Below are positions 10,174 through 28,489 of a stretch of 32,000 bases of DNA, one piece after another. The stretch is from Sedimentisphaera cyanobacteriorum. GTDB taxonomy: Bacteria; Planctomycetota; Phycisphaerae; Sedimentisphaerales; Sedimentisphaeraceae. The notes below the pieces were generated by a model. That model worked only from the letters and a program-made list of their open reading frames with translations, was not told the DNA's origin and made no database searches. Positions within the stretch are counted from its first letter, which is position 1; every line of letters begins with the position of its first letter. The stretch is from contig NZ_CP019633.1 in assembly GCF_001997385.1 (NCBI RefSeq), positions 930,001-962,000 on the forward strand. The letters are read 5' to 3'. The translations under genes and the position numbers were made by a program.

Positions 10174-10241
10174 TTTAATGCTTGTTCTCGCGTTACAGGA
10201 CAGAGGCATATTAAAACATTATGTGAAAATTGTTTTTAATA

Positions 10242-10280
10242 AGGCCTTGTTCTCTTTGCGGGAGCAGGGCCTTTTTTATT
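10242..10280 (+). terminator. Riboswitch expression-platform intrinsic terminator (attenuator)
   Basis: 13-bp stem (3 G-U pairs) aggccttgttctc (10242-10254) / gggagcagggcct (10260-10272), loop tttgc, then ttttt-a-tt. It lies between the aptamer and the ATG at 10308. Confidence 0.7.
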
Positions 10281-10307
10281 AACTTTTTCCATAAGGAACG
10301 TGTATCT

Positions 10308-11655: not shown

Positions 11656-12411
11656 ATGAACAGAAGACTAAAAAATCAGGGATTTACGCTCATCGAGCTT
11701 TTGACAGTAACAGCTGTTATCGGAATGCTGATTGCATTATTACTTCCAGCTCTGAACAAGGCAAGGCAGGAGGCTAAATCTTCTGTATGCAGGAACAAGC
11801 TCAGACAGATGTCCTTAGCTGCCAGCGCTTACAACAACACCTATGACGGCTATTTCCCCCCTGCTTACGACTTCAAGAAAACTGATTCCGGATTTTTAAA
11901 CATAAACTGGGATTTCATAATAGAAAATTCAACCAAAATTAAACCCGGACTGCTGTGGATGGGAGAAAGTCAGCCCGAGATTCAGCAGTGCCCTTCATTC
12001 AAAGGAAATTCCAACACACCGTCAGACATATACACAGGCTACAATTACAATACAAGCTATATAGGCCGAGGGGCGAATGAAACAATAAGCAGACCGGCTA
12101 AAATTGAAGAAATAAGCCGCCCTTATCGTTGTGCTGTTTTTGGAGATGGTGAATTTTCCGGCGGGGCTAACAAGTTTATGCGAAGCCCTGAGCCAAGCAG
12201 ATTCGACAAGTCTTTCAGCGGAAGAAACGCAGGCACGCAAGGTTTCAGGCATAACGGAAAAACCAGCATTGTCTGGGCAGACGGCCACGCAAGCTCACAG
12301 CGAAAATGTTTTGCTGAAAGAAGCGATGCAAGCAGAAGCGATATAGAAAACATTGCTGAAGGCACAGGATTTTTGTCCGCAGACAACTCTGCATACAGCC
12401 TGAAAAAATAA
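11656..12411 (+). CDS. Prepilin-type N-terminal cleavage/methylation domain protein, DUF1559 (H-X9-DG) family pseudopilin-like
   Basis: The N-terminus QGFTLIELLTVTAVIGMLIALLLPAL is a class III signal (G|FTLIEL). The C-terminal H-NGKTSIVWA-DG is an exact H-X9-DG motif. Confidence 0.9.
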   Translation: MNRRLKNQGFTLIELLTVTAVIGMLIALLLPALNKARQEAKSSVCRNKLRQMSLAASAYNNTYDGYFPPAYDFKKTDSGFLNINWDFIIENSTKIKPGLLWMGESQPEIQQCPSFKGNSNTPSDIYTGYNYNTSYIGRGANETISRPAKIEEISRPYRCAVFGDGEFSGGANKFMRSPEPSRFDKSFSGRNAGTQGFRHNGKTSIVWADGHASSQRKCFAERSDASRSDIENIAEGTGFLSADNSAYSLKK

Positions 12412-12441
12412 AAGGCCGCCCAAAAAAAACAGACGGCCTTT
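12411..12441. terminator. Hairpin between convergent genes, likely terminator (better T-tract for the minus-strand operon)
   Basis: Stem aaaggccg (12411-12418) / cggccttt (12434-12441) with an A-rich 15-nt loop. Read on the minus strand the stem is followed by tatttttt. On the plus strand the trailing T-run is weak. Confidence 0.55.
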
Positions 12442-12464: not shown

Positions 12465-12842
12465 TCAGTCTGCCTTAATATCATGGTTTAAGCCGATAGA
12501 CTTATTGTAAGTATTGAAAAGGCTCATCATCGAAGCCATCTCTATGGCTGCTGTAATTTCTTCATCAGTTATGCCCTGCTGCTTGGCAAGAGCTCTGTGG
12601 GCATCGATGCAGTAGCTGCAACCATTAGCCGCGCTCACAGCAATCGCTATAAGCTCTTTGGTTTTTCCATCCAGCCCAGACCCAGCGGTTTCCATAACCT
12701 TCAAAACGCCTTCGAGGAAATTGCCGTTTCTGCCCATAGCCTGAAAGGTTTCGGGCACGAATCCAAAATTCTTTTCCAGATTATTTTGAATCTCGACAGC
12801 CTTTTCATCTCCTGTTTTGTTGTAAAGTTTTGTAATAGCCAT
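12465..12842 (-). CDS. Carboxymuconolactone decarboxylase / AhpD-like family protein (CxxC)
   Basis: 125 aa. The AhpD-core signature is AIAVSAANGCSYCIDAH (C-x-x-C-x-x-x-H). An AAGGGAAAC RBS sits in the 12-nt gap after the upstream stop. Confidence 0.8.
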   Translation of the reverse strand: MAITKLYNKTGDEKAVEIQNNLEKNFGFVPETFQAMGRNGNFLEGVLKVMETAGSGLDGKTKELIAIAVSAANGCSYCIDAHRALAKQQGITDEEITAAIEMASMMSLFNTYNKSIGLNHDIKAD

Positions 12843-12854
12843 AAATGTTTCCCT

Positions 12855-13625
12855 TTATAAATATTGATATTTTAGTACAGCTTTATAAACCCCGTTGAGC
12901 CGATCTGAACAGACCTTTGATGGAGGGAAGTCGGTATTGCGAGGCTGAAGCCTAATACTTCCCTCATTTTCATAATATACTCTCTTAAAGGTAGCCTCAA
13001 AAGGGTCTTTGAATCTTACGAAGCAGTCATCACCGTTGTTCACAGCTCTTGAAGGCGAGAAGACCACAATATCTCCCTCGGAGTATTCGGGCATCATTGA
13101 ATCCCCCACCACCCTCACAGCAAAAGCGTTTGGATCGTTCAGCCCTGGGCAATTGATGTATTCATCAGCAAAGCCGGCAGGGTAAGACAAATCCCCAAAC
13201 TCAGCCGGATAGCCGGCACTGACTTTATTGATTACAGGAATAACCCCGGAAACACTGTTGCTGCGAAAATCTTTTATGTCTAAATGATGCTTCTCGAGAA
13301 ACTGCCTAACCTGTCCGGTATTATCTTCCTGGAGCATTTCAGAAAGAATCCGCCTGAACCTTTCATTTTCCACAAATGAACCTTCGATCTGGTCTCTCAA
13401 AGGCATAGGCATTTTTTTCATCTCGGCCAGATATAACAGCTCGCCCCTGTCAAAACCAAGCAGGTCTTCCAGTTTCGTCAAAAATTCCTGCCCGGGAGGA
13501 TTGCGGACTTTCCCTGTTTCAACGGTGGATATATACGGCTTTGAATAGCCGATCTTCTCGCTTACTGCGTCGAGTGTAAGCCCAAGTTCTTTCCTTCTCT
13601 TCCTTATTATCTTTCCAAGTACCAT
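12855..13625 (-). CDS. XRE-family HTH + peptidase S24 (LexA/CI-like) autocleavable transcriptional regulator
   Basis: 256 aa with an N-terminal HTH_XRE (IRKRRKELGLTLDAVSEKIGYSKPYISTVETGK). IPVINKVSAGYPAEF aligns with the LexA VAA-GEP scissile Ala-Gly region. S24 catalytic Ser is in VVGDSMMPEY and Lys in ATFKRVY. Confidence 0.85.
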   Translation of the reverse strand: MVLGKIIRKRRKELGLTLDAVSEKIGYSKPYISTVETGKVRNPPGQEFLTKLEDLLGFDRGELLYLAEMKKMPMPLRDQIEGSFVENERFRRILSEMLQEDNTGQVRQFLEKHHLDIKDFRSNSVSGVIPVINKVSAGYPAEFGDLSYPAGFADEYINCPGLNDPNAFAVRVVGDSMMPEYSEGDIVVFSPSRAVNNGDDCFVRFKDPFEATFKRVYYENEGSIRLQPRNTDFPPSKVCSDRLNGVYKAVLKYQYL

Positions 13626-13644: not shown

Positions 13645-14343
13645 TCAATGAAAGTTTATGCAGAAGAAAGTTAAAATAAAACCATTACTTACCATATAAT
13701 CATAATAGAAACAGACGCCTGAATCACGTAAAAAATTTTTTTGCATATAATTTGAATTCGGCAGAATCTTAACAGCCCCGTTATTGCGGTAATCAAGTAT
13801 GATCTCGTCAAAATTCATAAACCTGTCTTCAATATTCCCGAAACACTTGCCAACAGATTCCCTCAGAGAAAATGATATCCCCGCCCTTTGCTTGCTGCGG
13901 TCTGAAACAATCTGGCAGTATTCCCTGTGAGGAAGAAAATTTTTCAAATCTTCTGCGTCTATATCGTTCAAAAGCTCCATATCCGCCCCTATGCTTTTGA
14001 AACTGCTTTTCTGAGCAGCGGCTGCAAAAACCAGCCCGCCTGAATGGGAAATTGTACATGTTATACCGCTTGGGGCTTTAACGCTGCCGTTGGAGTTTAC
14101 AGTAAGGTCGCTGTAAGAGACTCTCATACTGGACAATATTTTTTTGAGCAGATGCCTGCCGGCAGAGAATTCCTCTAACCTCTTTTTTCGAGCGTCTTTG
14201 ACGGCCTCTCTCTCTAATGCAGAAAGCTCGCTGGTGTAGTCTGAAGATTGGGCAATCTCAAAACGAACATCAGAAGGGAGTATTTCTCTCCAGCTCTTAG
14301 CAAGGGCTCTTAGCATTTCAGTTTGCTTGGATAATCTGATCAA
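13645..14343 (-). CDS. 4'-phosphopantetheinyl transferase (Sfp/EntD type)
   Basis: 232 aa. EFSAGRHLLKKIL, TISHSGGLVFAAAA and IGADMELL (G-x-D-x-E) plus SLRESVGKCF (the position of the [FW]-x-x-KE-[SA]-x-x-K motif) match the EntD/Sfp layout. Start is ATG at 14343 (26-nt overlap with the NRPS 3' end) or ATG at 14316 (1 nt after the NRPS TGA). Confidence 0.75.
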   Translation of the reverse strand: MIRLSKQTEMLRALAKSWREILPSDVRFEIAQSSDYTSELSALEREAVKDARKKRLEEFSAGRHLLKKILSSMRVSYSDLTVNSNGSVKAPSGITCTISHSGGLVFAAAAQKSSFKSIGADMELLNDIDAEDLKNFLPHREYCQIVSDRSKQRAGISFSLRESVGKCFGNIEDRFMNFDEIILDYRNNGAVKILPNSNYMQKNFLRDSGVCFYYDYMVSNGFILTFFCINFH

Positions 14344-17300
14344 TTTTTCCCCTGATGAATGCCGGCAAAACTTTCGACTTCCTGATAATAAAACCGTGGT
14401 CGCCGGGAATCACTTTAAGCTCTACATTATTAACAAAATTCTTCCATCCAAGCGCAGCTCCCCTTAGAAGCCAATGCTCTCTTTCTGAAGCGGTGCAGAG
14501 TATTATATCCCCATCGTATTTATGTATTTTATGGGTTCTGGCGGCATTGAGATTCATCTTATAAACATCTTCTCTGTTTGAAACATATTTATTCTTGATT
14601 TCATCGTCCTGCCTGCTGAAATGCTCCCCTATAATCTCCTCCACGCTTTCAAACTGCTTATGCTTTTTCAGATAAGAAATAATAAACTTAAACATACCAA
14701 CAGGTCCAAGCGAGGCCAAATTCCAAGCTAAGTCAAAGTAGTAGGGCAGATTAATGTCAGCAGGAGGCATTGAGGGAACGTCCACCATAAGCAGCATACC
14801 TACCTTCCTGCCCATATCTTGGAGCATCTGAGCCATCTCATAAGCAATAAAGCCGCCAAAACACCATCCTAAAAGCAGATACGGGCCTTCAGGCTGAAAA
14901 TCAAGCAGCAGGTTTACGTAATACTCCGCCATCTCAGGAAGCGTTTTATGGGCTTTATTCAAATCAGACAGCCCGGCAGACTGGAATCCATAACAGGGCT
15001 GGTCTTTGCCAAGGTGATGAACCATATTTGCATAGCCGAGCACATCGCCGCTCAGCGAATGAATAAAATAAACAGGCAAACGCTGCCTGCTGCCTTTATT
15101 CAGCTCAACAAGGCATTTTTCCTCACTGCTGTCAGCACCCCCTGCGTTCTTAAAATCAAGAAAACCTGCCAAACCGGCTATTTCAGGATACTGAAGAATT
15201 TTTTCTATGCCAACGAACAGACCTCGTTCAGAAAGCAGGGAATCCATTTTTATCAGCATCAGCGAATGGCCGCCAAGGTCGAAGAAATTGTCATAAACGC
15301 CGAAATCGCTCCTTTCCAGAAGCTGCACCCAGATATCACGCAGCACTTCTTCCATAGGATTGCGAGGCATTACAATACCCGAACCAGCCTTTTCGCTCTG
15401 CGATAGCCCCTCTTGGGCACTTTTAAGCAAAGCATCACGGTCTGTCTTGCCGTTCTGGTTTAACGGAATTTTATCAATAGTGAAAATTTGAGCGGGCTGC
15501 ATATAATCCGGAAGTTTGCCTCTAATATAAGCACGCAGATCTTCTTCTTTGAAAGACTGCCGTTTTTCGGGAACCGCAAACAGCAGCAGTTTTTTTTCTG
15601 ACCCGGAGCTATCTGATGCAGCAACAGCCGCCTCTTTCACCCCGGCGTATTCCATAACAGCCTTCTCAATCTCCCCGGGCTCAACACGAAAACCGCGAAC
15701 CTGAATTTGAGAATCCTTCCGGTGAATGAACTCAAGATTCCCGTTTTCCTTTCTGCAAACTATATCACCTGTGCGATACATTCTCTCTGCCGGGTTAAAC
15801 GGGCTTTGGACAAATTTTTCTTTCGTCTCATCTTCAAGGCCGAGATAACCGCGAGCTACGCTTTTTCCGCTTATGCATAGCTCTCCCTGCCCGCCTTTAG
15901 CTGCAGGCTTTAGATCCGGACCTAATATATGAGCCTTATTCCCAGAAATCACATCACCTATATCGGGCAATTCGTCATTTCTTCCAGCTGGAGAAACCTT
16001 GCCGCAGGTTGCTATAACGGTGCATTCTGTAGGCCCGTATTCGTTGTACAAATCAAAACTCAACCCCTCAGGCGGGCGCTTGCTGAGTCTTTCGCCGCCG
16101 GTTTTAAGAACCTTTAGACTGCAATCACAAGGCCAATTTTCGAAAACTGCAAGCTCTGCAAGACGGGTAGTCATATCGCATATAGTTATTCGATTAGCGC
16201 AAAGCCAATCAATCAGTTTTTCGATATTGAAAATAATTCTCTCAGGCGGTATATGAACGCTTGCACCGGCCATAAGATAAGGCCAAATCTCGGAGACAGA
16301 TGTATCGAAACAAGTTCTTGCCAGATTGCTCGCTCTGTCTGAAAGAGAAATCTTGTAAAAATTCACCTGCCAGTTAATAAGGTTCTTTAGGCTGCGTCTT
16401 TCTACTTCAACCCCCTTCGGCCTTCCTGTGGAACCAGAAGTGTATATCACATAAGCAAGGCTCTCCTCTGAAACATCAGAACAAATCCGCTTTTGCCTCT
16501 CTTTGTTTTTCAATTGCTCTATATCAACATCTATAAAAGGCACTGCTTCCAATAATTTCTCATAATGCCGGTTTTTCGAGGCAAAAACGCAGGACACCTG
16601 AGCGTTTTGAATTATATAATTTATTCTCTCCTCAGGATAATCCGGATCTACAGGAACATACCCCCCTCCCGCTTTCAGCACAGCCAGCGCAGCTGCAGTA
16701 AATTCTATACCTCTGTCATACAAAACTGCGACCCTGCTGTCTGCCTTTACCCCGGCACTTATCAGCTTGGAGGCAAGCAGATCTGTTACCTTGTCCAGCT
16801 CTTGGTAAGTAAGATAATGTGAATAATCGCAAACAGCGGGTTTATCGGGATTCAATTCTGCATATTTGACAAAGCTTTTCGGAACTTCAAGCTCTGAGTC
16901 TTCTGTGCTAACGTTTTCTATATTCTCAAATGTGCTTGAAGGCAGAAAATCAGAAAGATTAGAGTTTGGTGAGGCAATTATCTTATCAGTTATCTCAAGC
17001 AGCTCATTGGAGAGTTTGCTGATTACAGAATAGTTGAAGATATTTGTATTGTATTCAAACCAGCCCTCAATAATTCCGTCTCGAGATTCGAGATCTAAGG
17101 TCAAATCAACTTTTGCGGTATTATTCCCAATATCATCAACACGTATTCTGCAGCTGCCCAATTCTGATTCCGGCGTATGAGCATTTTGAAAACTGAATAA
17201 ATGCTGAAAAACCGGATGAGCTGAAGGATACTTTACCAAATTCAGCTCCTGCACCAGATTTTCAAACGGGTAATTCTGATTTGTAAAGGCTTGAACGGTG

Positions 17301-20300
17301 TCAGTTTTTATCGAATCCAGCAGCGAAAAGACACTTTTCCCCCTCGAAACATTCAATTTTTGTACTATGCTGTTTATAAAAAGCCCAACAAGCTGTTCTG
17401 TTTGAGAATTAGGGCGATTTGCTATTGGAGAACCGATTATTATCTCATCTGTCTCAGAATGTTTTCTAAGCATAATTGAGTATGCAGTGAGAAGAAGCAT
17501 ATATTCAGTAACCGAATGCCTGCTGCAGAAATTATGAAACTCATCGCTTCTGTCTTTTCCAAAATTAAAATAATACCTTCTGCCCTCAAATGTCTGAGTT
17601 TCCGGTCTGGGTAAAGTGCAGTCGAGCTTTAATAGTCCTTTTATTCCATGAAGTTTGTCTATCCAAAATCTTTTCTGCGACTGAGCATCTTCAGAGCTCA
17701 GCCATTTCTGCAGCCATAGAGAATAATCGAAATATGAAATCTCCGGCCTGAATTTTTCTATGTCGCCGCCGATTAAAAGATTTTCGTAAATACCCTTCAA
17801 CTGCTTTTCAAAAACGCCGAGAGAGAAGCCGTCGAATACAGCATGATGAAAACCTGCAAGTAGGCTGTAAGTTTGAGAATCGTATTTGATAAGAGAAAAC
17901 CTGCAAACTTGGCCTTCCTTTAAGTCGAATCTGGAATCTCTAAACCCGCAGATAATCTCTTCAGATAAATCTTCAGCCTTATCATCCGGCATATTAGAAA
18001 GATCATGAAAAACATAATCAACTTGATGGTCTTTGCTTTCCTTTATGAGATACGAATCAGATATTTCAAACTTCAGCCTCAAACACTGCTGATATTCGAC
18101 AAGCTTTTTAACGGCAAGCTCAAGAAGCTCAACGTCTAACTCTCCTAATATCTCAAAATTGCATATAATACTGCAAATGTTAATTTCGGGCACAAACGAA
18201 TCCAAAAGCCACATGTGAATTTGTGAAGGAACAGCTGGAGATTCATTTAAATAAGTTGGTTCTATTTCTACAGACTGCTCATTAGATTTTGAGTCTGCCT
18301 TTTCTGCTAAAGAAGAAATATATGGAGATTTGAAAAAATCTGTGATATTTATATTTGTTCCGAATTTATGGTTAATCTTTGAAACAACCTTAAACGCCAT
18401 TAATGAATGACCGCCTGACTGGAAAAAATTGTCTTCCGATGAAAAGTTAGAATGCCCTAATATCTCAGACCAGATCTCAGCTATAGCCTTTTCTGTATTA
18501 CTTTTTATCGCCGGCTTATTCTCGCAGGATAATTCAAGGCTTTTTTCATACTCGTAAGCTTTATGTTTTAGCAATTCTCTGTCAATCTTGCCATTTGTAT
18601 TCATGGGGAAATCGTCTAGAGGTATGATATAAGCTGGTATCATATATTCCGGCAGGTTGTTAATCAACGTTTCCTTAAGCTTATCCTTATCAAAATTGCT
18701 CTGTTCATTTAACGTAACAAAACAGCAAAGTTTTTTTGCCCCCGCTGATTCTAAATCAACAGCAGCAGCCTGACTGACAAATTCATACTTCAGGGCAGCC
18801 TTTTCGATTTCACTCAGCTCGACCCTGAACCCGCGTATTTGTATTTGGAAGTCTTTCCTGCCTATATAGTCAATATTCCCGTCCGGCCTTCTTCTAACCA
18901 CATCCCCTGTTTTATACATCTTCAACCCGGGCACAAATGGGTCATCAAGAAAACGTTCTGCAGTTTGTTCGGGCAGATTAACATAACCTCTGCCCACACA
19001 GGGGCCGCTGATAAAAAGCTCACCCTCACAGCCTTCTTCTACGGGTTTTAAGCTTTCGTCCAGAATATAAGCAAAACTTCCCGGAACAGCTTTACCTATG
19101 TGCGGGAATTCACCGGACTCTTCTTTATGACCGATTATTCCTGAAGTGCTTGTAACACAGCATTCAGTTGGGCCATATTCATTGAAGAACGTAAAAGGCA
19201 AAGACCCAAGGGGGAATTTTTTGAGTCTGTCTCCTCCTGTTTTCATAATTCTGAGCGAGATATTATCCGGCCAGTTTTCAGAGATAACGATCTCTGCAAG
19301 AGGTGTTGTTACATCAGCAACAGTAATCTCATTCTCGCAAATCCATTTTATAAGTTTATTAGGGTTATAAACGGTATCCGCTTCAGCAATATGAACGCTG
19401 GCTCCACAAGATAAAGTTGGCCATATTTCTGCAATCGATGTATCAAAGCTAACCCTTGAGAGCTGGCTCATCCTGTCATTAGGTGTATAACTGTAAAAAT
19501 CATTTTCCCAGTCAACCAGATAGGCAAGGTTACGGTGCTCAATTTCAACGCCCTTAGGTCTGCCGGCAGAACCAGAGGTATAAATTGTATAGGCAAGAAA
19601 ATCAGGCGATAAAGAAACATTCAGCGGGTAATTATCAGAGTTCAAAAGCTTTTGGAGCTCAACGTCCAAAATCTGCTTTGTCTTTAGAGGAAATTCTGCT
19701 TCTGCGCAATTAAGAACAATATCAATATTTCCGTCTTCAAGTATGCAGCCAATTCTTTCATTAGGATATTTAACATCCAATGGAACAAAACATCCTCCTG
19801 CCTTCATAACTGAAAGACAGGAAACTATAAACTCAATACAGCTTGCCCCGTATATACCAACTTTGCATTCATTTTCCACACCTGAAATTTTTAGTTCATT
19901 GGCCAAAGCATCAGAAGCTTTCTCGAGCTGTTTGTACGTTAGAGAAGAATCGCCCTGCTCAACAGCAATTTTATTTGGGGTGTTTGATGAAAAAAGACTG
20001 ATCCTTTCAGGCACACTCTGGAAATTATAATTACGCTGAGAAGATTGAAGCGGTGCAAAAGAAATTAAATCAGAAACATAATTAACCCGGCCGGCAGTCA
20101 TCTTTTCTGCTGTATCAATAAAATCATCAGTTAAACCTTTAACAACTGATTCTGAAAACAAATCAGTGTTATACTCAAACCATCCCTTGATTATTCCTTT
20201 GGAATTTTCAAGGTTTAGGGTCAAATCTATCTTTGCGGTATGGTTGCCGATCTCATCAAGCTCAAGCTCCAAACCTGCAAAATTGATGTAAGGTATATGT

Positions 20301-23158
20301 GCATTCTGGAATATAAAATAATGCTGAAAAACAGGGTGCCTTGAATTATCCTTAGGCAGATTTAGAGTGGCCACCAGCTCTTCGAACGGGTATGTCTGAT
20401 TTTCAAATGCATCAAGTGTATCCGAATGCAATCTTTTAATGAGTTCATTGATTCCAGTTTTTTCAGCAAGATTGATCCTGTGCGTTATTGAATTAATGAA
20501 GAGGCCTATAATTTTATCGAGAGAAGGATCAGGCCTGTTTGAGATAGGAGAACCTATGACAATATCATCATCATTCGATTTATTTCTTAAAACAATTGCA
20601 TAAGCTAAAAGCAGAAATGGGTATTCAGTAGTCCCCAGAGACCTGCACAAATTTGTGATAAGCCCGCTTTGCTTTTCTGTTAATGAGAAGTATTCTCTAT
20701 CACCTTTGAAGGTTTGATAATCCGGTCTGCGGGTGACACAAGACAAATCTAATTTTCCGCTAATACCTTTAAGTTTATTCTTCCAGAATTTCAGCTGTTT
20801 GGCCGCTTCCCGGCCATCTAACCAGCTGTTAATCCAATCAGCATAATCGATATAATTTATTTCTGGGGGTGGAGGGAGAGTTTCATCTTCAGAAAGATAT
20901 GATATATAACATTCCTTTAAAAGCTTAACAAAAATCCCAACTGATGAACCATCTGCAATGCCATGATGAAACACAGAAACGAGCCTGTGGTTGTTAGTGC
21001 TTAGTTTTATGAGAAAAAATCTGCATACAGGCTCTGAATCCAGATTGAGGTCAATATTCCTGAATTCTTCAATTATTTCAGAAAGCTTGCTCTGAATCTG
21101 ATTTTCATTCAAATATGAAAGGTCTTTATAATCTAAACACTTCACGGGAGGCGTATCATCAGCAGAAATCATAAAATCATTAGAGTTCTGATCTAAATAA
21201 ACACTCATTCGGAGAGAATGCTGAGTTTCGATTATGTAATTAATAGTTTTTTCAAAAGCAGCCCTGTCCAGCAGTCCTTTTATCTTTACATCACAAACTA
21301 TATTGCATGCATTCAGATCGCCACTCAAAGAATCCAAAAGCCTCATGTGAATTTGTCCGGGGGTGGCGGGAGCTTTCTCAAGACCTTTGCTTTCAACCTC
21401 AATAACCGAGGCCTTATCAGACTTTTTCACAGCTTCAGTGAGAGACAAGACCGTTGGATTATCAAATATATCTTTTACTGATATGCTGCAGCCGAACTTT
21501 TCATTGATTCTTGAAGCAACCTTGAACGCTTTTAGGGAATGCCCGCCTGCATCAAAAAAATTTGTGTCTGCGGAAAAGTTATCATCGCCCAATACTTCTT
21601 CCCAAATTTCAAAAATCGCTTTCTCTTTATCAGAAAGTTCTTTTGGATCTGCATTTTCATTATTATCAGACAGATTGAAATATTCTCCTGAAGCCAAGGC
21701 TAAACGGTCAATCTTGCCGTTTAACGTCTTAGGAAGACTATCCAAAAATAAAATTTTTGAAGGCATCATATACGAAGGAAGATTCTCCGAGACAGCCTTC
21801 TTGAGTTTTTCCAAACATTTAGTATCCTTATCAGATGCTGCTGCAAAGGCAATGATCTTCTTCGATGCCTGGCCTTCCTGAAGAACAACTGCCGCCTCAG
21901 ATATATAAGGCTGCCTCAATATAACAGATTCGATTTCACCAAGCTCAATTCTAAAGCCTCTAATCTTGACCATCCGGTCTGTTCTGCCGTGAAATTCAAT
22001 GGTGCCGTCTTTGAGTTTTGCTCCAAGATCGCCTGTTTTATACATTTTATTTTTTGAGCTTTTGGAAAACTTATCCGGCAGAAATTTTGCTTTCGTGAGC
22101 TCAGGATCATTTAAATAACCTCTACCAACTCCTTCTCCAGCTATATAGATCTCGCCAACCTGCCCTTCTTTCACAGGGTTTAGATTTTCATCGAGGATAT
22201 AAACCCTCGCACCGGAAATAGGCACGCCGATATTGGGGGATATATTTTCGCTTTTTTCATGAGTTATTTCAGCATAGGTTGAAACTACCGTGCATTCGCT
22301 CGGGCCGTAATGATCGAACATTTTGAAAGGTGCATCGGGCTTTGGCGCCTTGCGAAGCGCATCTCCGCCGCTGAAAAGGTATTTCAGACGGCATCCTTCC
22401 GGCCAATCCAAATCTAAACAGCTCTCAGCTAAAGGTGTCGGCATAAAACAGGTATCCAAATTATTTTCTGTTACCCATTCTACTAATTTTTGAGGCTCAT
22501 ACAAAAGCTCTTCAGGGGGGATTGATATTGACCCGCCCGAAGCGAGATATGGCCATATCTCAAACAGCGATGCATCAAATGATGGTCTGGCGACCCAGCT
22601 AGTTTTAGTTCCTGCCTTGAAATTATAAGCAACAACCATCCAGTTAATAAAATTAGCAAGGCATCTGTGAGGTATAACAGTGCCTTTGGGCTCGCCTGTA
22701 GAACCGCTTGTGAATATTACATAGGCCAAATTTTCATCTGAGATTGCATTATCATCTCTTAGAGGCCTGCTTTCTTTGATACTGTCTGTTTCAACATCGA
22801 TAATTTCAGGACATACAGAAGACTGTAAAGGAGATATGTCAGGCTGAGAAAATACAAGCCTAATATCTGCATCTCTTATTATCATATCAAGACGGGCTTG
22901 AGGGAGCTTGGAATCTAATGACACATAAATGCAGCCGGCTTTCATAATGCCAAGTGCAGAGGCAATGAACTCAATACTTCTTGAAGTATAGATTCCGACA
23001 ATCTGGCCGGCAAGACCTTTATCCTCAATTATCTTGGCTATATTTTCAGATGCATTGTCAAGCTGACGGTAGTTCAGGGCTTGCTCACCCTGAATTAGAA
23101 CTGTGAGTTCAGGCGTTGCCTGTGCCTGCTCGAGGAACATATCGACAATATTATTCAT
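14318..23158 (-). CDS. Non-ribosomal peptide synthetase, three modules: A-T-C-A-T-C-A-T-TE
   Basis: 2946 aa. Domains were mapped by hand (aa, then nt on the minus strand).
- A1 1-490 (23158-21689): LNYRQL, YVIFTSGSTGEPKG, YKTGD, GRTDRMVKIRGFRIELGEIE, NGKIDR.
- T1 508-580 (21637-21419): FFDAGGHSL, Ser541 codon 21536-21538.
- C1 593-1025 (21382-20084): HHGIADG at 20968-20948.
- A2 1045-1530 (20026-18569): YTIYTSGSAGRPKG, NGKIDR.
- T2 1553-1625 (18502-18284): FFQSGGHSL.
- C2 1635-2065 (18256-16964): HHAVFDG at 17848-17828.
- A3 2090-2575 (16891-15434): YVIYTSGSTGRPKG, NGKTDR.
- T3 2598-2670 (15367-15149): FFDLGGHSL.
- TE 2685-2946 (15106-14321): GWCFGG.
I saw no E, MT, Cy, R or starter-C domain. 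Confidence 0.95.
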   Translation of the reverse strand: MNNIVDMFLEQAQATPELTVLIQGEQALNYRQLDNASENIAKIIEDKGLAGQIVGIYTSRSIEFIASALGIMKAGCIYVSLDSKLPQARLDMIIRDADIRLVFSQPDISPLQSSVCPEIIDVETDSIKESRPLRDDNAISDENLAYVIFTSGSTGEPKGTVIPHRCLANFINWMVVAYNFKAGTKTSWVARPSFDASLFEIWPYLASGGSISIPPEELLYEPQKLVEWVTENNLDTCFMPTPLAESCLDLDWPEGCRLKYLFSGGDALRKAPKPDAPFKMFDHYGPSECTVVSTYAEITHEKSENISPNIGVPISGARVYILDENLNPVKEGQVGEIYIAGEGVGRGYLNDPELTKAKFLPDKFSKSSKNKMYKTGDLGAKLKDGTIEFHGRTDRMVKIRGFRIELGEIESVILRQPYISEAAVVLQEGQASKKIIAFAAASDKDTKCLEKLKKAVSENLPSYMMPSKILFLDSLPKTLNGKIDRLALASGEYFNLSDNNENADPKELSDKEKAIFEIWEEVLGDDNFSADTNFFDAGGHSLKAFKVASRINEKFGCSISVKDIFDNPTVLSLTEAVKKSDKASVIEVESKGLEKAPATPGQIHMRLLDSLSGDLNACNIVCDVKIKGLLDRAAFEKTINYIIETQHSLRMSVYLDQNSNDFMISADDTPPVKCLDYKDLSYLNENQIQSKLSEIIEEFRNIDLNLDSEPVCRFFLIKLSTNNHRLVSVFHHGIADGSSVGIFVKLLKECYISYLSEDETLPPPPEINYIDYADWINSWLDGREAAKQLKFWKNKLKGISGKLDLSCVTRRPDYQTFKGDREYFSLTEKQSGLITNLCRSLGTTEYPFLLLAYAIVLRNKSNDDDIVIGSPISNRPDPSLDKIIGLFINSITHRINLAEKTGINELIKRLHSDTLDAFENQTYPFEELVATLNLPKDNSRHPVFQHYFIFQNAHIPYINFAGLELELDEIGNHTAKIDLTLNLENSKGIIKGWFEYNTDLFSESVVKGLTDDFIDTAEKMTAGRVNYVSDLISFAPLQSSQRNYNFQSVPERISLFSSNTPNKIAVEQGDSSLTYKQLEKASDALANELKISGVENECKVGIYGASCIEFIVSCLSVMKAGGCFVPLDVKYPNERIGCILEDGNIDIVLNCAEAEFPLKTKQILDVELQKLLNSDNYPLNVSLSPDFLAYTIYTSGSAGRPKGVEIEHRNLAYLVDWENDFYSYTPNDRMSQLSRVSFDTSIAEIWPTLSCGASVHIAEADTVYNPNKLIKWICENEITVADVTTPLAEIVISENWPDNISLRIMKTGGDRLKKFPLGSLPFTFFNEYGPTECCVTSTSGIIGHKEESGEFPHIGKAVPGSFAYILDESLKPVEEGCEGELFISGPCVGRGYVNLPEQTAERFLDDPFVPGLKMYKTGDVVRRRPDGNIDYIGRKDFQIQIRGFRVELSEIEKAALKYEFVSQAAAVDLESAGAKKLCCFVTLNEQSNFDKDKLKETLINNLPEYMIPAYIIPLDDFPMNTNGKIDRELLKHKAYEYEKSLELSCENKPAIKSNTEKAIAEIWSEILGHSNFSSEDNFFQSGGHSLMAFKVVSKINHKFGTNINITDFFKSPYISSLAEKADSKSNEQSVEIEPTYLNESPAVPSQIHMWLLDSFVPEINICSIICNFEILGELDVELLELAVKKLVEYQQCLRLKFEISDSYLIKESKDHQVDYVFHDLSNMPDDKAEDLSEEIICGFRDSRFDLKEGQVCRFSLIKYDSQTYSLLAGFHHAVFDGFSLGVFEKQLKGIYENLLIGGDIEKFRPEISYFDYSLWLQKWLSSEDAQSQKRFWIDKLHGIKGLLKLDCTLPRPETQTFEGRRYYFNFGKDRSDEFHNFCSRHSVTEYMLLLTAYSIMLRKHSETDEIIIGSPIANRPNSQTEQLVGLFINSIVQKLNVSRGKSVFSLLDSIKTDTVQAFTNQNYPFENLVQELNLVKYPSAHPVFQHLFSFQNAHTPESELGSCRIRVDDIGNNTAKVDLTLDLESRDGIIEGWFEYNTNIFNYSVISKLSNELLEITDKIIASPNSNLSDFLPSSTFENIENVSTEDSELEVPKSFVKYAELNPDKPAVCDYSHYLTYQELDKVTDLLASKLISAGVKADSRVAVLYDRGIEFTAAALAVLKAGGGYVPVDPDYPEERINYIIQNAQVSCVFASKNRHYEKLLEAVPFIDVDIEQLKNKERQKRICSDVSEESLAYVIYTSGSTGRPKGVEVERRSLKNLINWQVNFYKISLSDRASNLARTCFDTSVSEIWPYLMAGASVHIPPERIIFNIEKLIDWLCANRITICDMTTRLAELAVFENWPCDCSLKVLKTGGERLSKRPPEGLSFDLYNEYGPTECTVIATCGKVSPAGRNDELPDIGDVISGNKAHILGPDLKPAAKGGQGELCISGKSVARGYLGLEDETKEKFVQSPFNPAERMYRTGDIVCRKENGNLEFIHRKDSQIQVRGFRVEPGEIEKAVMEYAGVKEAAVAASDSSGSEKKLLLFAVPEKRQSFKEEDLRAYIRGKLPDYMQPAQIFTIDKIPLNQNGKTDRDALLKSAQEGLSQSEKAGSGIVMPRNPMEEVLRDIWVQLLERSDFGVYDNFFDLGGHSLMLIKMDSLLSERGLFVGIEKILQYPEIAGLAGFLDFKNAGGADSSEEKCLVELNKGSRQRLPVYFIHSLSGDVLGYANMVHHLGKDQPCYGFQSAGLSDLNKAHKTLPEMAEYYVNLLLDFQPEGPYLLLGWCFGGFIAYEMAQMLQDMGRKVGMLLMVDVPSMPPADINLPYYFDLAWNLASLGPVGMFKFIISYLKKHKQFESVEEIIGEHFSRQDDEIKNKYVSNREDVYKMNLNAARTHKIHKYDGDIILCTASEREHWLLRGAALGWKNFVNNVELKVIPGDHGFIIRKSKVLPAFIRGKIDQIIQAN

Positions 23159-23170
23159 TTTTGGCCGCTC

Positions 23171-23578
23171 TTACTTCGACAAAACAAAATTTATTTTGCC
23201 AGTTATTAAATAATACACAACTTTAAGCGCCTTCGCAGAAACTGTCCCTAAAATAATCCCCTTCAGGTCTGCATAGTAATCTGCGATGCAGTATTCTCTG
23301 CCGAAAAACTGCTGAGTATATTCATCAAGATAGCCCAATCCTGCAAGCAGGATGGCAATCATAAGGCTTATTAAAACACTTTTCCAGCTTGCAGCGCTGA
23401 AACTGAGATTATAAAGGAAAGCGAGCATAAAATACGCTGCAAAATGAACGGTTTTATCATTATAATTTCCCGCCTCGGGCAGCCAATCTGCCGGGATATG
23501 CGTAAGGAAAAAAAGTATAATCGTTGATACAACAGCAGCAAAAGCTGCATGATATTGAATTTTCAAAAGCATATTCAA
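23171..23578 (-). CDS. VanZ-like family integral membrane protein
   Basis: 135 aa with about 4 TM segments. VanZ-family motifs are NDKTVHFAAYFMLAFLY (DK..H...Y) and LDEYTQQFFGREYCIADYYADLKGIILG (DE..Q.f..gR....D...d..G). Its stop lies 12 nt before the NRPS ATG. Confidence 0.75.
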   Translation of the reverse strand: MNMLLKIQYHAAFAAVVSTIILFFLTHIPADWLPEAGNYNDKTVHFAAYFMLAFLYNLSFSAASWKSVLISLMIAILLAGLGYLDEYTQQFFGREYCIADYYADLKGIILGTVSAKALKVVYYLITGKINFVLSK

Positions 23579-23598: not shown

Positions 23599-25536
23599 TC
23601 AATCAAGCATACTCTGTATTGCATCAACGAGCGTGTCTCTGTCAACAGGCTTGGAAACATACGAATTGAAACCCTTGGCAAGGAGGCTGTCTCTGTCTCC
23701 CTTCATTGCCTTAGCTGTCAGCGCAATAACGGGAACTTCAAGTCCTTTCTCTCGAAGTTTTCTGAATGCTGTTACGCCATCCATCTCAGGCATCATTATA
23801 TCCATAAGTATAACATCATAGCTTGAACTTTCCAGCATATCAAGGGCGACCCTGCCGTTCTCTGCACTTTCAACTTTATACAAATCCCCTATCATCATCT
23901 GCACCGTAATCCTGCCGAATTTGTTGTCTTCAACCAAAAGAACGCGAGGCATTTTTATCTCTGTGTCCTCACCCTTGGACTCTCCAAATTCTGCGTTTTG
24001 ATAAATATTCAGCGGCTCTGATGATTTATCGTATTCCTCTCCGGGCAGCTGATAGCCGCTTGAGTGTTTTGCTTTGATCTTATCTAAATTAGCCGGAACA
24101 TAAAACTTGAAAGTAGTGCCTTTGCCTACCTCACTTTCAGCATCAATGCCGCCGCCGAGAAGCTTAAGCAGCTTTTTGCATATTGCAAGACCAAGACCCG
24201 TTCCTGAATATTTTTTTGTAGTAGAGCTGTCAACCTGTTTGAACTCATCAAAAATGCCGTTCATATCTTCTTTGTCAATACCAATACCAGTATCTTCTAT
24301 CTCAAAGTTTAACATATCGCCGCTTAGAGAGCATCTAAGATATACTGTGCCTTGTTCAGTGAACTTAACAGCATTGCCGAGTATATTAAGAAGTACCTGA
24401 TTAACCTTCTGCTTATCAGAATAAATTAGATCGGGCACGGAGCTGCCGATCTCAAGAGCAACTTCCACCTCTTTATCGCCGACCATCCCCTTTGCCACAC
24501 TTCTCAGAGGCAAAAGCAGCTCCTGGGGATCAAAGATATCGTATTTTATGTCCCGCCTGCCCGCTTCAATCTTGGATAGGTCGAGTATGTCATTTATTAA
24601 AAGCAAAAGCCTCTGTCCGCTTTCGTTTATTATTTTAAGACCTTCAATCTGTTTCTCAGTAAGGTTGTCCAGATTGTATTTGGAAAGTGTTTGAGAAATC
24701 CCAATGATTGCATTCATTGGAGTTCGTATCTCATGGCTCATATTTGCAAGAAAATCGCTTTTTGCATGATTGGCTCTCTCAGCAGCTTCTTTTGCCCTGA
24801 GAAGTTCAGAGACATCCATAAGAGTTATGATATACCCGCTAAGTTCGTTCACTCCCTGAACTGCATTAAGCTTCACCTCATAAACCCGCTTGCCGATTTC
24901 GTAAGTGCAAGGTTCAGAGGGCTCATTACAAGGCTGAGTTTTCATCTTGTCTGCCACAAAAGTGCCAAAATCGCCGAGGTCTTTCAAATACTTGCCTACA
25001 ATCGAGCTTCTCTTAGTATTAAAACAGTCAGCAAAGCGTTTGTTTACTTCAACTATCTTTCCATCCTCACCTACAGATGCTATACCATCATTAATATTAG
25101 CAAATATCGCCTTGAGCTTAGCCGCTTCTTCACGAACCCTCTTTTCGACTTTGTTCCTCTCAATTGCGTAAAGTATGAACTGCGGGAGAGAGTGAATCAT
25201 CTGGTCGTTTTTAACGATATAGTCTGAGGCCCCGTTTTTTATGGATTCAAGGCCAATCTTGTCGTCATCAAGGCCTGTGAGCACAATGATCGGTATATCT
25301 TCAGAACTCTTTTTCACGCTCGTGAGCGTAGCAACCCCTTCACTGTCGGGAAGGCCAAGATCAGTAAGTACAAGGTTATAACTGTTATTTTGAATGAAAT
25401 CCAAACCGGTTTTGAGGTCCTCAGCAAAATCTGCCTTGAGCAGATATGAGTGCCTGGATTTTTTGAAAGACAGCTTTATAAGCGAACTGTCGTTTTTGTT
25501 GTCTTCGATAACTAAAATCCTATTTTGTTCACCCAT
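23599..25536 (-). CDS. Hybrid sensor histidine kinase/response regulator (REC-PAS-HisKA-HATPase_c-REC)
   Basis: The ORF opens TTG-ATG (25539/25536); I take the ATG at 25536, which shares 1 nt with the wzx-like TGA (TGATG). The N-terminal REC has [10 protein letters not shown]...[14 protein letters not shown]-like segment has [28 protein letters not shown]. The H-box is [14 protein letters not shown], the N-box [11 protein letters not shown], and the G-boxes EDTGIGI and [10 protein letters not shown]. The C-terminal REC has VLLVEDNKF...[13 protein letters not shown]...ALTAKA. Confidence 0.9.
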
Positions 25537-27167
25537 CAAGAGCTCCCTTTCAATTTCTTATTAAAGAAATCCGCTACAAGCTTGTTTAAATCTGTTCTCT
25601 CCTGTTTTTTTATGCCGATTGCATAGAATAGTATCATATACATTCCGCACGACAGCGCTGATAAAAACACTAAAGCCAGAAGCTTGAGAATGCCTGAATG
25701 CTCAGCAAAATATCTTGCAATCATCCCTGCATCTTTGTCTGCAGCAATATTCAAAACCCCCGAAACAATAAGATGGTAAACAGTGTCTTTAAGGAAAAGA
25801 GTAACTGCTCCTATTACCAATCCAGTCATCAAACTTCCGAGCACAGAATATCTCAGGAAATAAAGCGGCGATACTTTTGCGAATCTGCAGGCTGTCGGTA
25901 CATTGTAAACACAGCCGAAGAAAATATTTGGGACTAAAGTCCCGATAGCTACGCCTATTATTCCCATCATTCTCACGAGTATAACACTAATTAACAAATT
26001 CGCAAGACACTCAATCACAGAAACTATCGCCAACTCCTTCTGACGGTCGCACATAAGCAGTATTTGGATAGAGCTGCTCCTCATCACAACGTAAAAATAT
26101 TGTGAAACCAGAAGGATTACAGCGCATATCTGACTTTCAGTTCTTGTAAGGTCAAGCCAAGTTTCAAAAAGCGGGCCGACGAAGACGACCAGCGGAACAA
26201 GCATCATTGTAGAAATAAAAGCTATCACCCTGCTGGAATAAAGCTGCATTCTGCCCAAAGAATCAAGGTCGCCTGAGGTGTGCATCACTGAGGCAACCGG
26301 GCCGAGGTTGTCGTTGAACTGCATTGCAAAACTGCGAAAAACATCGCCCAGCTTGCTTGCAACCTGATAATAAGCCACAAAAGCCACGCCGATACTCGCA
26401 GAGATTACCAAATTATCTGTCTTGAAGATGATAAGTTTGCTGCAGATTATAAGGTAAACGAATATCGAAAATCCCATAACCTCCTTAATCATTGAAGGCG
26501 AGAAAAACCGAAAGCCGATTTTCATATTCTCCAATTTTATAAAGGCGTATATCAGCATAACTATCTTGCTGCCTACGTGATTTAGAACTGTAGCAATTGT
26601 CATTTCCCAGAGGCCGTATCCGCTTTTTATAAGCCAGACCATAACAATAAGATTAATAACTGCAAAAACAGCATCTATATTATTTCTAAGCCAGATAAGC
26701 TGAATACCTCTGAGAAGACCGGGCGAGAAACCAACAGGAAAAATAAGAGCCGTCCCAAAGCCGAAAAGCAGAAAAACTTTTCTGTAGTAATCTACATCAC
26801 TGCCCGGCTCGAGTTTGCTTATAGGCTCAATGAAAAAGCTTATAATCACTGTAGCAGCTATGATGATAAGCGATATAAACCAGTAACTGAAAAAAACCGT
26901 CGATACGAGCCTGTTGAACCTGTCCCAGTTTTTATTTACTGTTACCTGACTTGCGTATTTCTGAACAGCTGTCCCTAAGCCGAAATCAAGGAGAAGTGAA
27001 TAACCGAATATCGTCCACAAAAGCCCCCAAAAGCCGTAATCCTGCCTTGAAAGCCCCGTAAACTGAACCCTTACTAATATGATCATTGAAATCATATTGA
27101 ACAGCAGAAGCCCATAGTTTGACAGGGTATTCAGGAACATCCTTTTAGCAACACTTAAGTTAGACAT
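25536..27167 (-). CDS. Polysaccharide biosynthesis/oligosaccharide flippase (Wzx/MOP superfamily)
   Basis: 543 aa and highly hydrophobic, with at least 12 predicted TM helices by eye. The N-terminal pattern of PF01943/PF13440-type flippases is present ([27 protein letters not shown]...[18 protein letters not shown]). Confidence 0.75.
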
Positions 27168-27229
27168 TTAATTCTCACTATGTTTATATTGAAACCGCAG
27201 CAGTAAACAAAAAAGCTAATATTTATTAT

Positions 27230-28444
27230 TCAGGAAAGCACTTCTTTCAGCAAGGATTTTGCATTATCCAAACGTTTTAACAGCTTTTTCCGCACAGACA
27301 TACTTTTCTTTTTAAATTCTTCCCTGTTATTGAGATGATAAGCAGTCTGTTCGTAAAGGCTTGAAAAATCGCAGTCTTCAACATTTCCGGCAGACTTAAG
27401 CCCAAATTCTGCAAGGAAATTATCCACCTTAGACCCCCTGCTTATGCCGATAAAAGGTACTTGTACAATCGAGGAAAGAATAAGAAGATGAAGCCTGCTG
27501 CTTATAACACAATCCAGATTGGAAATAAGGGCAAGTATATCAGCAGGCTCAAATCTGCCCTCAAGCAGCATTGAGTTTTCCGGATTCTTCATTTGATTTT
27601 TGAGCTGTCCCATCAATTCAGAGTCTGTTAAGGGGTTCATAGGAACAAACAATACATCAATGCCTTCTTTCGTGAGTTTATTGAGAAAATCTACAAGGCC
27701 TTTACTGTTTTCAACCTGACGCTGGGCTGAAATACAGATGCCGACTTTAGGTTTTCGGGAATCACAGAATTCAAATATCTCAGGTGCAAACGGTGCCTCC
27801 TGCCAAGGAGTCTTTTCCTGAATAAGAGCAGAATCCGCCCCAACCACGAGATTGCCTGCATTACCGCATTTTTTAACCTCCTGCTCTGTGGGGAAATCTC
27901 TAAGAACTGTTAAGTCTGTATTGCGAAGAGATTGAGCAATCCTCTCCCGCATCCTTTTATCTATTCTTGCGTTCGTCTTTTTGACAAAATCAGCAATCCC
28001 GAAAGTTAATGCGTCAGCTATTTGAAGCATAGTTTTCATTTTACCGGGCTGAAGCCTGTACATAAACGGATTCAGACTTGTATTCATACCTACACCCCAA
28101 ATTACGGTTTTAGTGCCGGCGTTTTGAGCTTTATTAAGCATATTCGTGGTTATATGCGGATAGTCTGAAAGCCCTGTGGCCCCGCTCCAGATAAATACAT
28201 CGCTTTGCTCTAAAGCCGCATCCATACTCCCGCATTCGGCTTCAGGCTCGAAATAGGCGAGCGGAACTGTTTTCACATTCAATTTATTCTCAGTAGGCTT
28301 CTTATCATCTGTACTTACAGTAATCTCGGAATTAGGTGCATATTCACGAACAATCTTTACTGCATTTTCGAGAATACACTCATCTCCAACATTATTGCAC
28401 CCAAACGGTACCCCGCCAAGCAAAACCTTTAATTTATCTTCCAT
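27230..28444 (-). CDS. Polysaccharide pyruvyl transferase family protein (CsaB/WcaK-like)
   Basis: 404 aa. N-terminal KVLLGGVPFGCNNVGDECIL and C-terminal CVISSRLHLLILSSIVQVPFIGISRGSKV match the PS_pyruv_trans (PF04230) layout. Confidence 0.7.
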   Translation of the reverse strand: MEDKLKVLLGGVPFGCNNVGDECILENAVKIVREYAPNSEITVSTDDKKPTENKLNVKTVPLAYFEPEAECGSMDAALEQSDVFIWSGATGLSDYPHITTNMLNKAQNAGTKTVIWGVGMNTSLNPFMYRLQPGKMKTMLQIADALTFGIADFVKKTNARIDKRMRERIAQSLRNTDLTVLRDFPTEQEVKKCGNAGNLVVGADSALIQEKTPWQEAPFAPEIFEFCDSRKPKVGICISAQRQVENSKGLVDFLNKLTKEGIDVLFVPMNPLTDSELMGQLKNQMKNPENSMLLEGRFEPADILALISNLDCVISSRLHLLILSSIVQVPFIGISRGSKVDNFLAEFGLKSAGNVEDCDFSSLYEQTAYHLNNREEFKKKSMSVRKKLLKRLDNAKSLLKEVLS

Positions 28445-28489
28445 TTGTATAACCTTAAAAAATCACTATCCAAGGGAATATCAAAAAAT

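Follow-up and report, generated by a model that had tools for sequence, protein, structure and literature searches.

The nonribosomal peptide synthetases (NRPSs) TycC, LgrA, and SrfA-C are described assembly lines with which the NRPS reported here can be compared. The latter is encoded, together with a VanZ-like membrane protein and a 4'-phosphopantetheinyl transferase (PPTase), in a 32,000-nucleotide stretch of the Sedimentisphaera cyanobacteriorum chromosome (contig NZ_CP019633.1, positions 930,001 to 962,000; this whole stretch is called the window, and coordinates below count from its first letter). It has domain types, core motifs, and colinear logic in common with all three; LgrA is its best overall match in the PDB (2.4e-224), and TycC6 is the best or second-best match of its condensation (C) domains. 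Identity to these enzymes is ~30-40%, however, and the Sedimentisphaera NRPS lacks F, E, and MT domains, ends in a thioesterase (TE) domain with a cysteine nucleophile, carries unmatched specificity codes in its second and third adenylation (A) domains (A2 and A3), and, unlike them, belongs to an obligately anaerobic planctomycete. AB3403 of A. baumannii (ABBFA_003403, PDB 4ZXH/4ZXI) is a termination module whose TE shares with the Sedimentisphaera TE the GWCFGG cysteine, the position-I aspartate, and the PGDH histidine. It differs in consisting of one C-A-T-TE protein to which a separate A domain and a carrier (T) supply the substrate, where the Sedimentisphaera NRPS has three modules; its A and C domains are not specially close to those described here (C domains, 60-80 bits), and organism, operon, and module number differ. 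ObiF1 (obafluorin) and SulM (sulfazecin) resemble the Sedimentisphaera NRPS in having a cysteine in the terminal TE, and they make small products of 2-3 residues, a size also predicted for the Sedimentisphaera product.

S. cyanobacteriorum is an anaerobic, halophilic, strictly fermentative member of the Phycisphaerae from a salt mat, and we know of no natural product from this group. Its NRPS is intact, selectively maintained, and without a characterized close relative. We consider it likely that the VanZ-like, NRPS, and PPTase genes constitute a functional, lineage-restricted, linear (type A) NRPS cassette working by the mechanism proposed below. Uncharacterized NRPS clusters are very common, and only two features lift this one above the ordinary, namely, a difference of exactly one module between two species and an exopolysaccharide gene context; its cysteine TE has structural precedent.

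The NRPS gene is an uninterrupted 8.8-kb frame. Pfam profiles identified three AMP-binding, three AMP-binding_C, two Condensation, three PP-binding, and one Thioesterase domain (E-values of ~1e-19 to 1e-195), and motif positions give the order A1-T1-C1-A2-T2-C2-A3-T3-TE. The cassette and the NRPS domains are laid out as follows.

23171..23578, minus strand: VanZ-like four-helix membrane protein, 135 aa, ending 12 nt upstream of the NRPS start
14318..23158, minus strand: NRPS gene, 2946 aa (open reading frame [ORF], Pfam domains, core motifs)
21659..23158, minus strand: A1 adenylation domain (aa 1-500), code DAFFFGHVV(K), Leu-like/hydrophobic; 78% identity to S. salicampi A1
21389..21658, minus strand: T1 carrier domain (aa 501-590), Ser541 in GGHSL (Pfam, motif)
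20024..21388, minus strand: C1 condensation domain (aa 591-1045), HHGIADG at aa 731 (Pfam, motif)
18524..20023, minus strand: A2 adenylation domain (aa 1046-1545), code DTA(D/T)KGEVT(K); 44-48% identity to A3 and S. salicampi A2
18263..18523, minus strand: T2 carrier domain (aa 1546-1632), Ser1585 (motif)
16889..18262, minus strand: C2 condensation domain (aa 1633-2090), HHAVFDG at aa 1771; 72-74% identity to the sole S. salicampi C domain
15383..16888, minus strand: A3 adenylation domain (aa 2091-2592), code DTSDKGEVI(K), motif A8 = HRKD; code same as S. salicampi A2
15119..15382, minus strand: T3 carrier domain (aa 2593-2680), Ser2632 (motif)
14321..15118, minus strand: TE domain (aa 2681-2946), triad Cys2766/Asp2793/His2921 (Pfam Thioesterase, 8e-19; alignment to 4zxh)
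13645..14343, minus strand: EntD/PptT-type PPTase, 232 aa from TTG or 223 aa from the ATG at 14316

The phosphopantetheine-attachment serine lies in GGHSL in all three T domains (motif at aa 538, 1582, and 2629), and both C domains carry the condensation motif HHxxxDG. Each A domain contains core motifs A1 to A10, together with the alpha-amine-binding D235 and the A10 lysine motif. The sole deviation is in motif A8 of A3 (window 15700-15760 on the minus strand, aa ~2477-2482), which reads FIHRKDSQIQVRGFRVE; here His replaces Gly, giving HRKD instead of GRxD, whereas GRKD with the conserved Gly is kept in the S. salicampi counterpart and in A1 and A2. The protein starts directly with an A domain, and its N-terminal sequence, MNNIVDMFLEQA, is the same in S. 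salicampi. The Pfam scan of the NRPS returned no domain type beyond the five listed, and thus no E, dual E/C, F, CAL, or starter-C domain. An initial annotation, made from the letters of the window and a list of its reading frames, had proposed the 8.8-kb size, the coordinates, the domain string A-T-C-A-T-C-A-T-TE, GGHSL in all carriers, and the absence of E, starter-C, CAL, and formylation domains. ORF, Pfam, and motif mapping agree with each of these, the profile search adds or removes no domain, and the frame is single and intact. An identical 2946-aa protein is present in a public representative library (P0131); GenBank holds the window proteins as AQQ08925-AQQ08939, and the chromosome measures 2.95 Mb.

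The syntenic locus of S. salicampi, found in two independent assemblies, has the gene order Wzx, kinase, VanZ, NRPS, PPTase, LexA-like, and carboxymuconolactone decarboxylase (CMD). Between the VanZ-like and PPTase genes it encodes an NRPS of 1902 aa with the order A-T-C-A-T-TE (L003:3600-9308). A1, T1, and TE are 78%, 73%, and 88% identical between the species; the sole S. salicampi C domain is 72-74% identical to C2, its A2 is 73% identical to A3, and its T2 is 81% identical to T3. C1-A2-T2, in contrast, shows 41-48% identity to the module-3 domains (C2/A3/T3) or to the S. salicampi C and A domains, and 34-36% in the comparison with the S. salicampi T2. The S. salicampi orthologue has the same syntenic position, the same A1 and terminal A codes, and the same GWCFGG TE and is without exactly one unit of 1044 codons, the borders of which are marked by a direct repeat.

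18212..21343, minus strand: 1044-codon C1-A2-T2 unit absent from S. salicampi (domain and junction alignment)
21327..21375, minus strand: upstream junction repeat copy, C1 core motif QIHMRLLDS (repeat search, spacing of 3132 nt)
18195..18243, minus strand: downstream junction repeat copy, QIHMWLLDS, at the start of C2 (repeat search)

The two copies of the repeat, 3132 nt apart, have a core identical at 25 of 26 nt. In S. salicampi, the T1-C junction is a hybrid, T1-C1-like up to QxHM and T2-C2-like from WLLDSF on, and the breakpoint falls between QxHM and WLLDS, within the C1 core motif. C1 and C2 find their best match in each other (357 bits versus ~218 for the next C domains examined), and A2, which shares the unusual code of A3, resembles it slightly more than any database A domain does; the extra module is therefore an old paralogue. 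A recent tandem duplication was ruled out because the module paralogues are 41-48% identical and the orthologues 72-88%. An assembly artifact was ruled out as well, since the modules are too divergent for misassembly and the two-module form occurs in two assemblies. Given these identities, the mutual best match of C1 and C2, and the flanking repeat, which offers a deletion route, we slightly prefer the view that S. salicampi lost the module when the repeats recombined. Evidence for gain in S. cyanobacteriorum comes from the extra module having the lowest GC content at third codon positions (GC3), 0.344 versus 0.38-0.40. Judged from its domain order, the S. salicampi enzyme should make the corresponding dipeptide. 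Sister species with and without an exact C-A-T module, both under purifying selection and with a breakpoint in the C1 core motif, represent clean natural module-level editing, which is relevant to rules for NRPS engineering.

To assess selection, we compared the two species by the Nei-Gojobori method. With synonymous sites near saturation, the ratio of nonsynonymous to synonymous substitution (dN/dS) was 0.07-0.20 for each orthologous NRPS domain; the values for VanZ and the PPTase were 0.14 and 0.28, respectively. Synonymous divergence (dS) in the cassette is about 0.7-1.8, the same range as in the flanking genes; this, with the low dN/dS, indicates that the cassette predates the species split and has been kept by selection in both lineages. 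VanZ, NRPS, and PPTase are 68-88% identical between species and have a GC3 of 0.34-0.47, compared with 90-98% identity for the flanking kinase, LexA-like, and CMD genes and a GC3 of 0.43-0.50 for the flanking genes. Because they share this higher divergence and lower GC3, the three genes behave as a unit.

The PPTase gene is tightly coupled to the NRPS gene. With the TTG start, the two genes overlap by 26 nt at the NRPS stop, the alternative ATG at 14316 lies one spacer base after the TGA, and GenBank holds both versions, of 232 and 223 aa; the start and stop positions thereby confirm the coupling that had been read from the sequence at the outset. The protein matches Pfam 4PPT_N at 45.4 bits (cut-off, 27) and ACPS at 20.9 bits, under the cut-off of 25, and it contains KRLEEFSAGR, IGADME, and FSLRESVGK, following the Sfp/EntD-type pattern KRxxEFxAGR, GxD, and (F/W)SxKES. 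PDB matches to EntD and PptT are weak (E, 0.0025-0.01), and scores against the NCBIfam equivalogs Npt, PptT, and HetI are 18-32 bits, far under cut-offs of 365-370. By its motifs, the gene downstream of the NRPS is a divergent EntD/PptT-type PPTase. The VanZ-like gene matches NCBIfam vanZ_1 at 40.5 bits (cut-off, 20) and Pfam VanZ at 24.5 bits, under the cut-off of 30.1; it occupies the same place in S. salicampi with 75% identity. The initial annotation described positions 13645-23578 as a compact cluster with no tailoring or transport genes and left this ORF, which lies inside that range, undescribed. Its statement that MbtH, an ABC/MFS exporter, and tailoring enzymes are lacking is upheld. 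A six-frame search of the window found no MbtH-like motif, and among window ORFs with 230 aa or more, Pfam and NCBIfam profiles detected neither an ABC/MFS transporter nor a tailoring enzyme of the classical kinds.

Specificity codes were taken by alignment to the GrsA-PheA pocket, and the reference gave DAWTIAAIC, as it should. The A1 code, DAFFFGHVV, matches DAWFLGHVV, a code recurrent among relatives, at 7 of 9 positions and DAWFLGNVV, reportedly the classical Leu code described by Stachelhaus in 1999, at 6 of 9; A1 likely accepts a hydrophobic, Leu-like residue. The A2 and A3 codes, DTA(D/T)KGEVT and DTSDKGEVI, resemble each other, and since this unusual code is shared, the two added residues are probably the same or similar; that the pocket takes a polar or charged residue is a guess from the code. 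No precursor-supply gene was found among the window genes, and primary-metabolite amino acids are therefore expected as substrates. C1 and C2 score 153 and 176 bits against TycC6 and 91 and 118 against LgrA, references which we take to be LCL domains, and 75 and 84 against TycB1 and 89 and 79 against SrfA-C, presumably DCL domains; the best solved matches of C1 are a Geobacillus A-T-C protein (5u89) and TycC6. Both C domains look LCL-type on these scores. An all-L peptide with a free amine at its N terminus is the default reading, and colinearity would make the product a tripeptide.

The TE carries GWCFGG, with Cys in place of Ser, in both Sedimentisphaera species. Its triad comprises Cys2766 in this motif, Asp2793, 27 residues after the Cys, and His2921 in PGDH (aa 2918-2921). 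AB3403 (4zxh) is the best solved match (E, 4.7e-24; 249 of 266 residues aligned), and in the alignment GWCFGG, the Asp, and PGDH all coincide; Pks13-TE is also among the full-length PDB matches. A 2024 structural paper describes AB3403 as the only solved NRPS TE that pairs a Cys nucleophile with an Asp at canonical position I, whereas in ObiF1, which forms a beta-lactone, and in SulM, which forms a beta-lactam, the Asp occupies position II; the SulM motif is Q-C-N (PMC11298585). On this alignment the TE is an AB3403-type cysteine thioesterase; with its Asp at position I and a W-C-F rather than a Q-C-N motif, it also fails the tests for a strained-ring TE. A Cys nucleophile occurs in 13 of 33 TE-bearing related proteins and is for that reason no special marker.

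From this domain content, we propose the following mechanism. The coupled PPTase would convert Ser541, Ser1585, and Ser2632 to their holo forms, and A1 would charge T1 with a Leu-like, hydrophobic amino acid whose amine is left free. The LCL-looking C1 and C2 would then add two residues picked by A2 and A3, whose shared code (D-T-x-D-K-G-E-V-x-K) suggests a probably polar pocket. The tripeptidyl chain would move to Cys2766 of the AB3403-type TE and leave the enzyme as a short linear peptide, hydrolysis being the simplest route.

As far as the databases searched show, the cassette is restricted to Sedimentisphaera. We compared A3-T3-TE with 5.8 billion proteins and found best relatives of 32-41% identity and none above 41%, in an index that listed no match longer than ~1,516 aa and did not return the S. 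salicampi orthologue. GTDB representative genomes yielded only a 30%-identical Slackia NRPS; exact 8-residue peptides of the NRPS were also unmatched in that collection, which apparently lacks or masks the source region. A metagenome scan with the two-species alignment found loci of only 26-31% identity, and a word-sharing search with the PPTase returned only the two Sedimentisphaera proteins. A HMMER search with C2 over 1.84 billion representatives recovered the query and S. salicampi (73% identity), the rest of the best 150 being giant multi-C NRPSs of 24-30% identity; this list excludes further close relatives (~70% or more), and smaller moderate relatives could rank below it. NCBIfam NRPS equivalogs scored far under their cut-offs (AusA, 1381 versus 2500; MxcG, 1062 versus 2300; EntF, 803 versus 2400; SolG, 1006 versus 2200). 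With these scores and the 32-41% ceiling for A3-T3-TE, the early statement that the cluster resembles no characterized one holds. Literature that mentions Sedimentisphaera does not discuss the cluster.

The cassette lies within a longer run of genes. From 31910 to 12465 the minus strand carries a single tight co-directional array, 19.5 kb or more in length, whose neighboring genes either overlap by 4 nt or lie no more than 62 nt apart, in the order chain-length-determinant-like, Poly_export/SLBB, Wzy_C, pyruvyl transferase, Wzx-like flippase, hybrid kinase, VanZ-like, NRPS, PPTase, LexA-like, and CMD/AhpD-like.

25536..31910, minus strand: exopolysaccharide genes, comprising Wzx-like flippase, pyruvyl transferase, Wzy_C, Poly_export/SLBB (Wza-like), and chain-length-determinant-like (profile matches)
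23599..25539, minus strand: hybrid sensor histidine kinase, REC-PAS-HisKA-HATPase-REC (Pfam), ending 20 nt upstream of the VanZ gene; 90% identity in S. salicampi
12855..13625, minus strand: LexA-like regulator, HTH_3 plus Peptidase_S24 (Pfam), beginning 19 nt after the PPTase; 93% identity in S. salicampi
12465..12842, minus strand: CMD/AhpD-family protein, final gene of the run (Pfam); 98% identity in S. salicampi
12411..12441, minus strand: strong terminator-like hairpin, 12-bp stem and then a T-run, following the CMD gene

No terminator-like hairpin other than that at 12441-12411 lies between genes on the minus strand. Promoter-like consensus matches numbered 53, against 42.6 ± 6.1 in shuffled sequence; this is near expectation and was not used as evidence. 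The cassette and the exopolysaccharide and hybrid-kinase genes upstream of it are probably co-expressed. The stand-alone compact cluster of the initial annotation accordingly gives way to a cassette embedded in a run of exopolysaccharide, sensor-kinase, and regulator genes, with no intergenic terminator and short gaps throughout. The LexA-like repressor gene (XRE-type HTH plus S24 peptidase) and the AhpD/CMD gene close the presumed transcription unit with dN/dS values of 0.045 and 0.009, and at 93% and 98% identity they are far more conserved between the species than the NRPS cassette just upstream.

Links to polysaccharide synthesis recur in some of the closest A3-T3-TE relatives. Their nine distinct loci include three within polysaccharide loci, one beside a Poly_export gene, two with weak links, and three with none, one of the unlinked loci being a classical NRPS cluster that includes TauD, CmlA, and an ABC exporter. 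In the first of the three polysaccharide loci (L009, 6474-12494), Wzy_C-GT2-GT4-Wzc-Wza and a free-standing C domain precede an A-T-TE-A-T protein; in the next (L010, 1878-6142), the stop of an A-T-TE gene overlaps the Wzx start and three glycosyltransferases follow (GT2-GT4-GT1); in the last (L012, 6875-11788), an A-T-TE gene is flanked by GT2s, WecG, GT4, and Wzx. The exopolysaccharide-linked relatives have unrelated specificity codes and a mixture of Ser and Cys nucleophiles. Together with the locus of protein P0115, these three show A-T-TE-type genes in, or coupled to, Wzx/Wzy/Wza/glycosyltransferase loci on unrelated metagenomic contigs, which suggests a recurrent, undescribed link of carrier-dependent amino-acid activation to polysaccharide synthesis. 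A narrow full-text search found no literature on a polysaccharide-decorating NRPS system. Metagenomic relatives at L004:2-6120, L005:1-10176, and L006:3-9467 comprise two consecutive NRPS genes, each ending in its own Cys-TE (GWCFGG), and then an overlapping PPTase gene; the first NRPS gene has Gln-like and Val-like codes and the second a Pro-like code, and the C domain of this second gene has no recognizable HHxxxDG.

Several points weigh against a functional linear-peptide cassette as we propose it. The mechanism is drawn from domain content, and the product itself is a prediction. The A2 and A3 codes have no match of at least 6 of 9 positions among 151 codes from related proteins, and neither code string was found in a literature search. 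Diamino-acid specificity was considered for both and rejected, because the codes fit none of the three published binding modes, which use Glu at position 3, Glu/Asp at position 4 with Asp at position 9, or Asp-Asp at positions 8-9 (PMC12042044). Motif A8 of A3 has His for its conserved Gly, and the LCL typing of C1 and C2 is a bit-score ranking against a handful of solved structures. For AB3403 itself the product is described as undefined, so that the release step assigned to this Cys-TE is conjectural. Co-transcription with the exopolysaccharide genes, finally, is deduced solely from spacing and the consensus scan. Some of these points bear on the possibility that the NRPS is a decaying or silent relic, or is non-colinear through module skipping or iteration, in which case the tripeptide would be wrong. 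The altered A8 motif would fit such a reading, as would the sufficiency of two modules in S. salicampi, the lack of any transporter or MbtH partner in the window, and the small genome (2.95 Mb) of a strictly fermenting organism. We nevertheless regard it as very unlikely, since the frame is unbroken over 8.8 kb with catalytic motifs in all nine domains, dN/dS is 0.07-0.20 in each orthologous domain (synonymous sites near saturation), and a dedicated PPTase is kept in both species. Still harder to sustain is the proposal that the Cys-TE closes a strained ring, a beta-lactone or beta-lactam, on the C-terminal residue to yield a reactive warhead peptide as ObiF1 and SulM do. GWCFGG is present in both species, the products of the two characterized Cys-TEs are a beta-lactone (ObiF1) and a beta-lactam (SulM), and the A3 pocket is unusual and probably polar. 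Asp2793 is at position I, however, and lactone and lactam formers have position II; the enzyme shows neither the Q-C-N of SulM nor a Dap-type A code, A3 lacking the diaminopropionate (Dap)-binding Asp-Asp pair of positions 8 and 9, and the window holds no gene for supply of a beta-hydroxy-amino acid or Dap. Cys is, moreover, found in 13 of 33 related TEs. We rejected the idea on the position-I Asp and the W-C-F motif and consider it exceedingly improbable.

The gene context raises another alternative, which we think unlikely, in which the NRPS, rather than forming a secondary-metabolite cluster of its own, is the peptide-adding arm of the exopolysaccharide operon. Ahead of flipping by Wzx, the Cys-TE would then work as a transferase and attach the di- or tripeptide to a sugar or to a lipid-linked repeat unit. 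Such a system would be akin to DltABCD or AlmEFG, except for its condensation domains. The genes from chain-length determinant through CMD are co-directional, with gaps of at most 62 nt and one terminal hairpin; the order Wzx-kinase-VanZ-NRPS-PPTase-LexA-like-CMD is kept in S. salicampi; three of nine relative loci (L009, L010, and L012) lie inside polysaccharide loci and a fourth abuts a Poly_export gene; and the full-length PDB matches of the TE include Pks13-TE, an acyl-transferring TE. Against this, the association was spotted post hoc and is absent or weak in five of the nine loci, and the linked relatives differ in specificity codes and mix Ser and Cys nucleophiles. GC3 (0.34-0.47 versus 0.43-0.50) and interspecies identity (68-88% versus 90-98%) suggest a separately evolving cassette, and a narrow literature search found no paper on such a system. 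It is likewise doubtful that this NRPS and the wider set of small A-T-TE and C-A-T-TE enzymes in Wzx/Wzy/Wza loci form a polysaccharide-decorating machine in which an aminoacyl or short peptidyl group is assembled on a carrier domain and passed by the TE to the exopolysaccharide repeat unit. In that case, the presence or absence of the extra module would act as a natural dipeptide/tripeptide switch in the decoration of a matrix polymer. A position at the end of an exopolysaccharide operon that recurs in some distant relatives raises the question of whether some small NRPSs serve matrix or envelope modification rather than making free metabolites.

Other features of the window lie on the plus strand. 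Near the exopolysaccharide genes, positions 5078-5791 encode a 237-aa secreted protein with a C-terminal PEP-CTERM signal (PF07589; 21.9 bits, cut-off 20.7), which implies an exosortase system in the genome; no exosortase gene lies within the window. A DUF1559/N-methyl prepilin-like ORF (11656-12411) is the next gene after an ORF at 10230-11600 for a 456-aa protein that has no Pfam match, carries a hydrophobic, signal-peptide-like N terminus, and is 89% conserved in S. salicampi. Directly upstream of this latter ORF is a cobalamin riboswitch (RF00174; 10002-10184; 68.4 bits; E, 4.6e-15), and the riboswitch-linked protein may represent an undescribed family and act, under B12 control, at the cell surface or in uptake.

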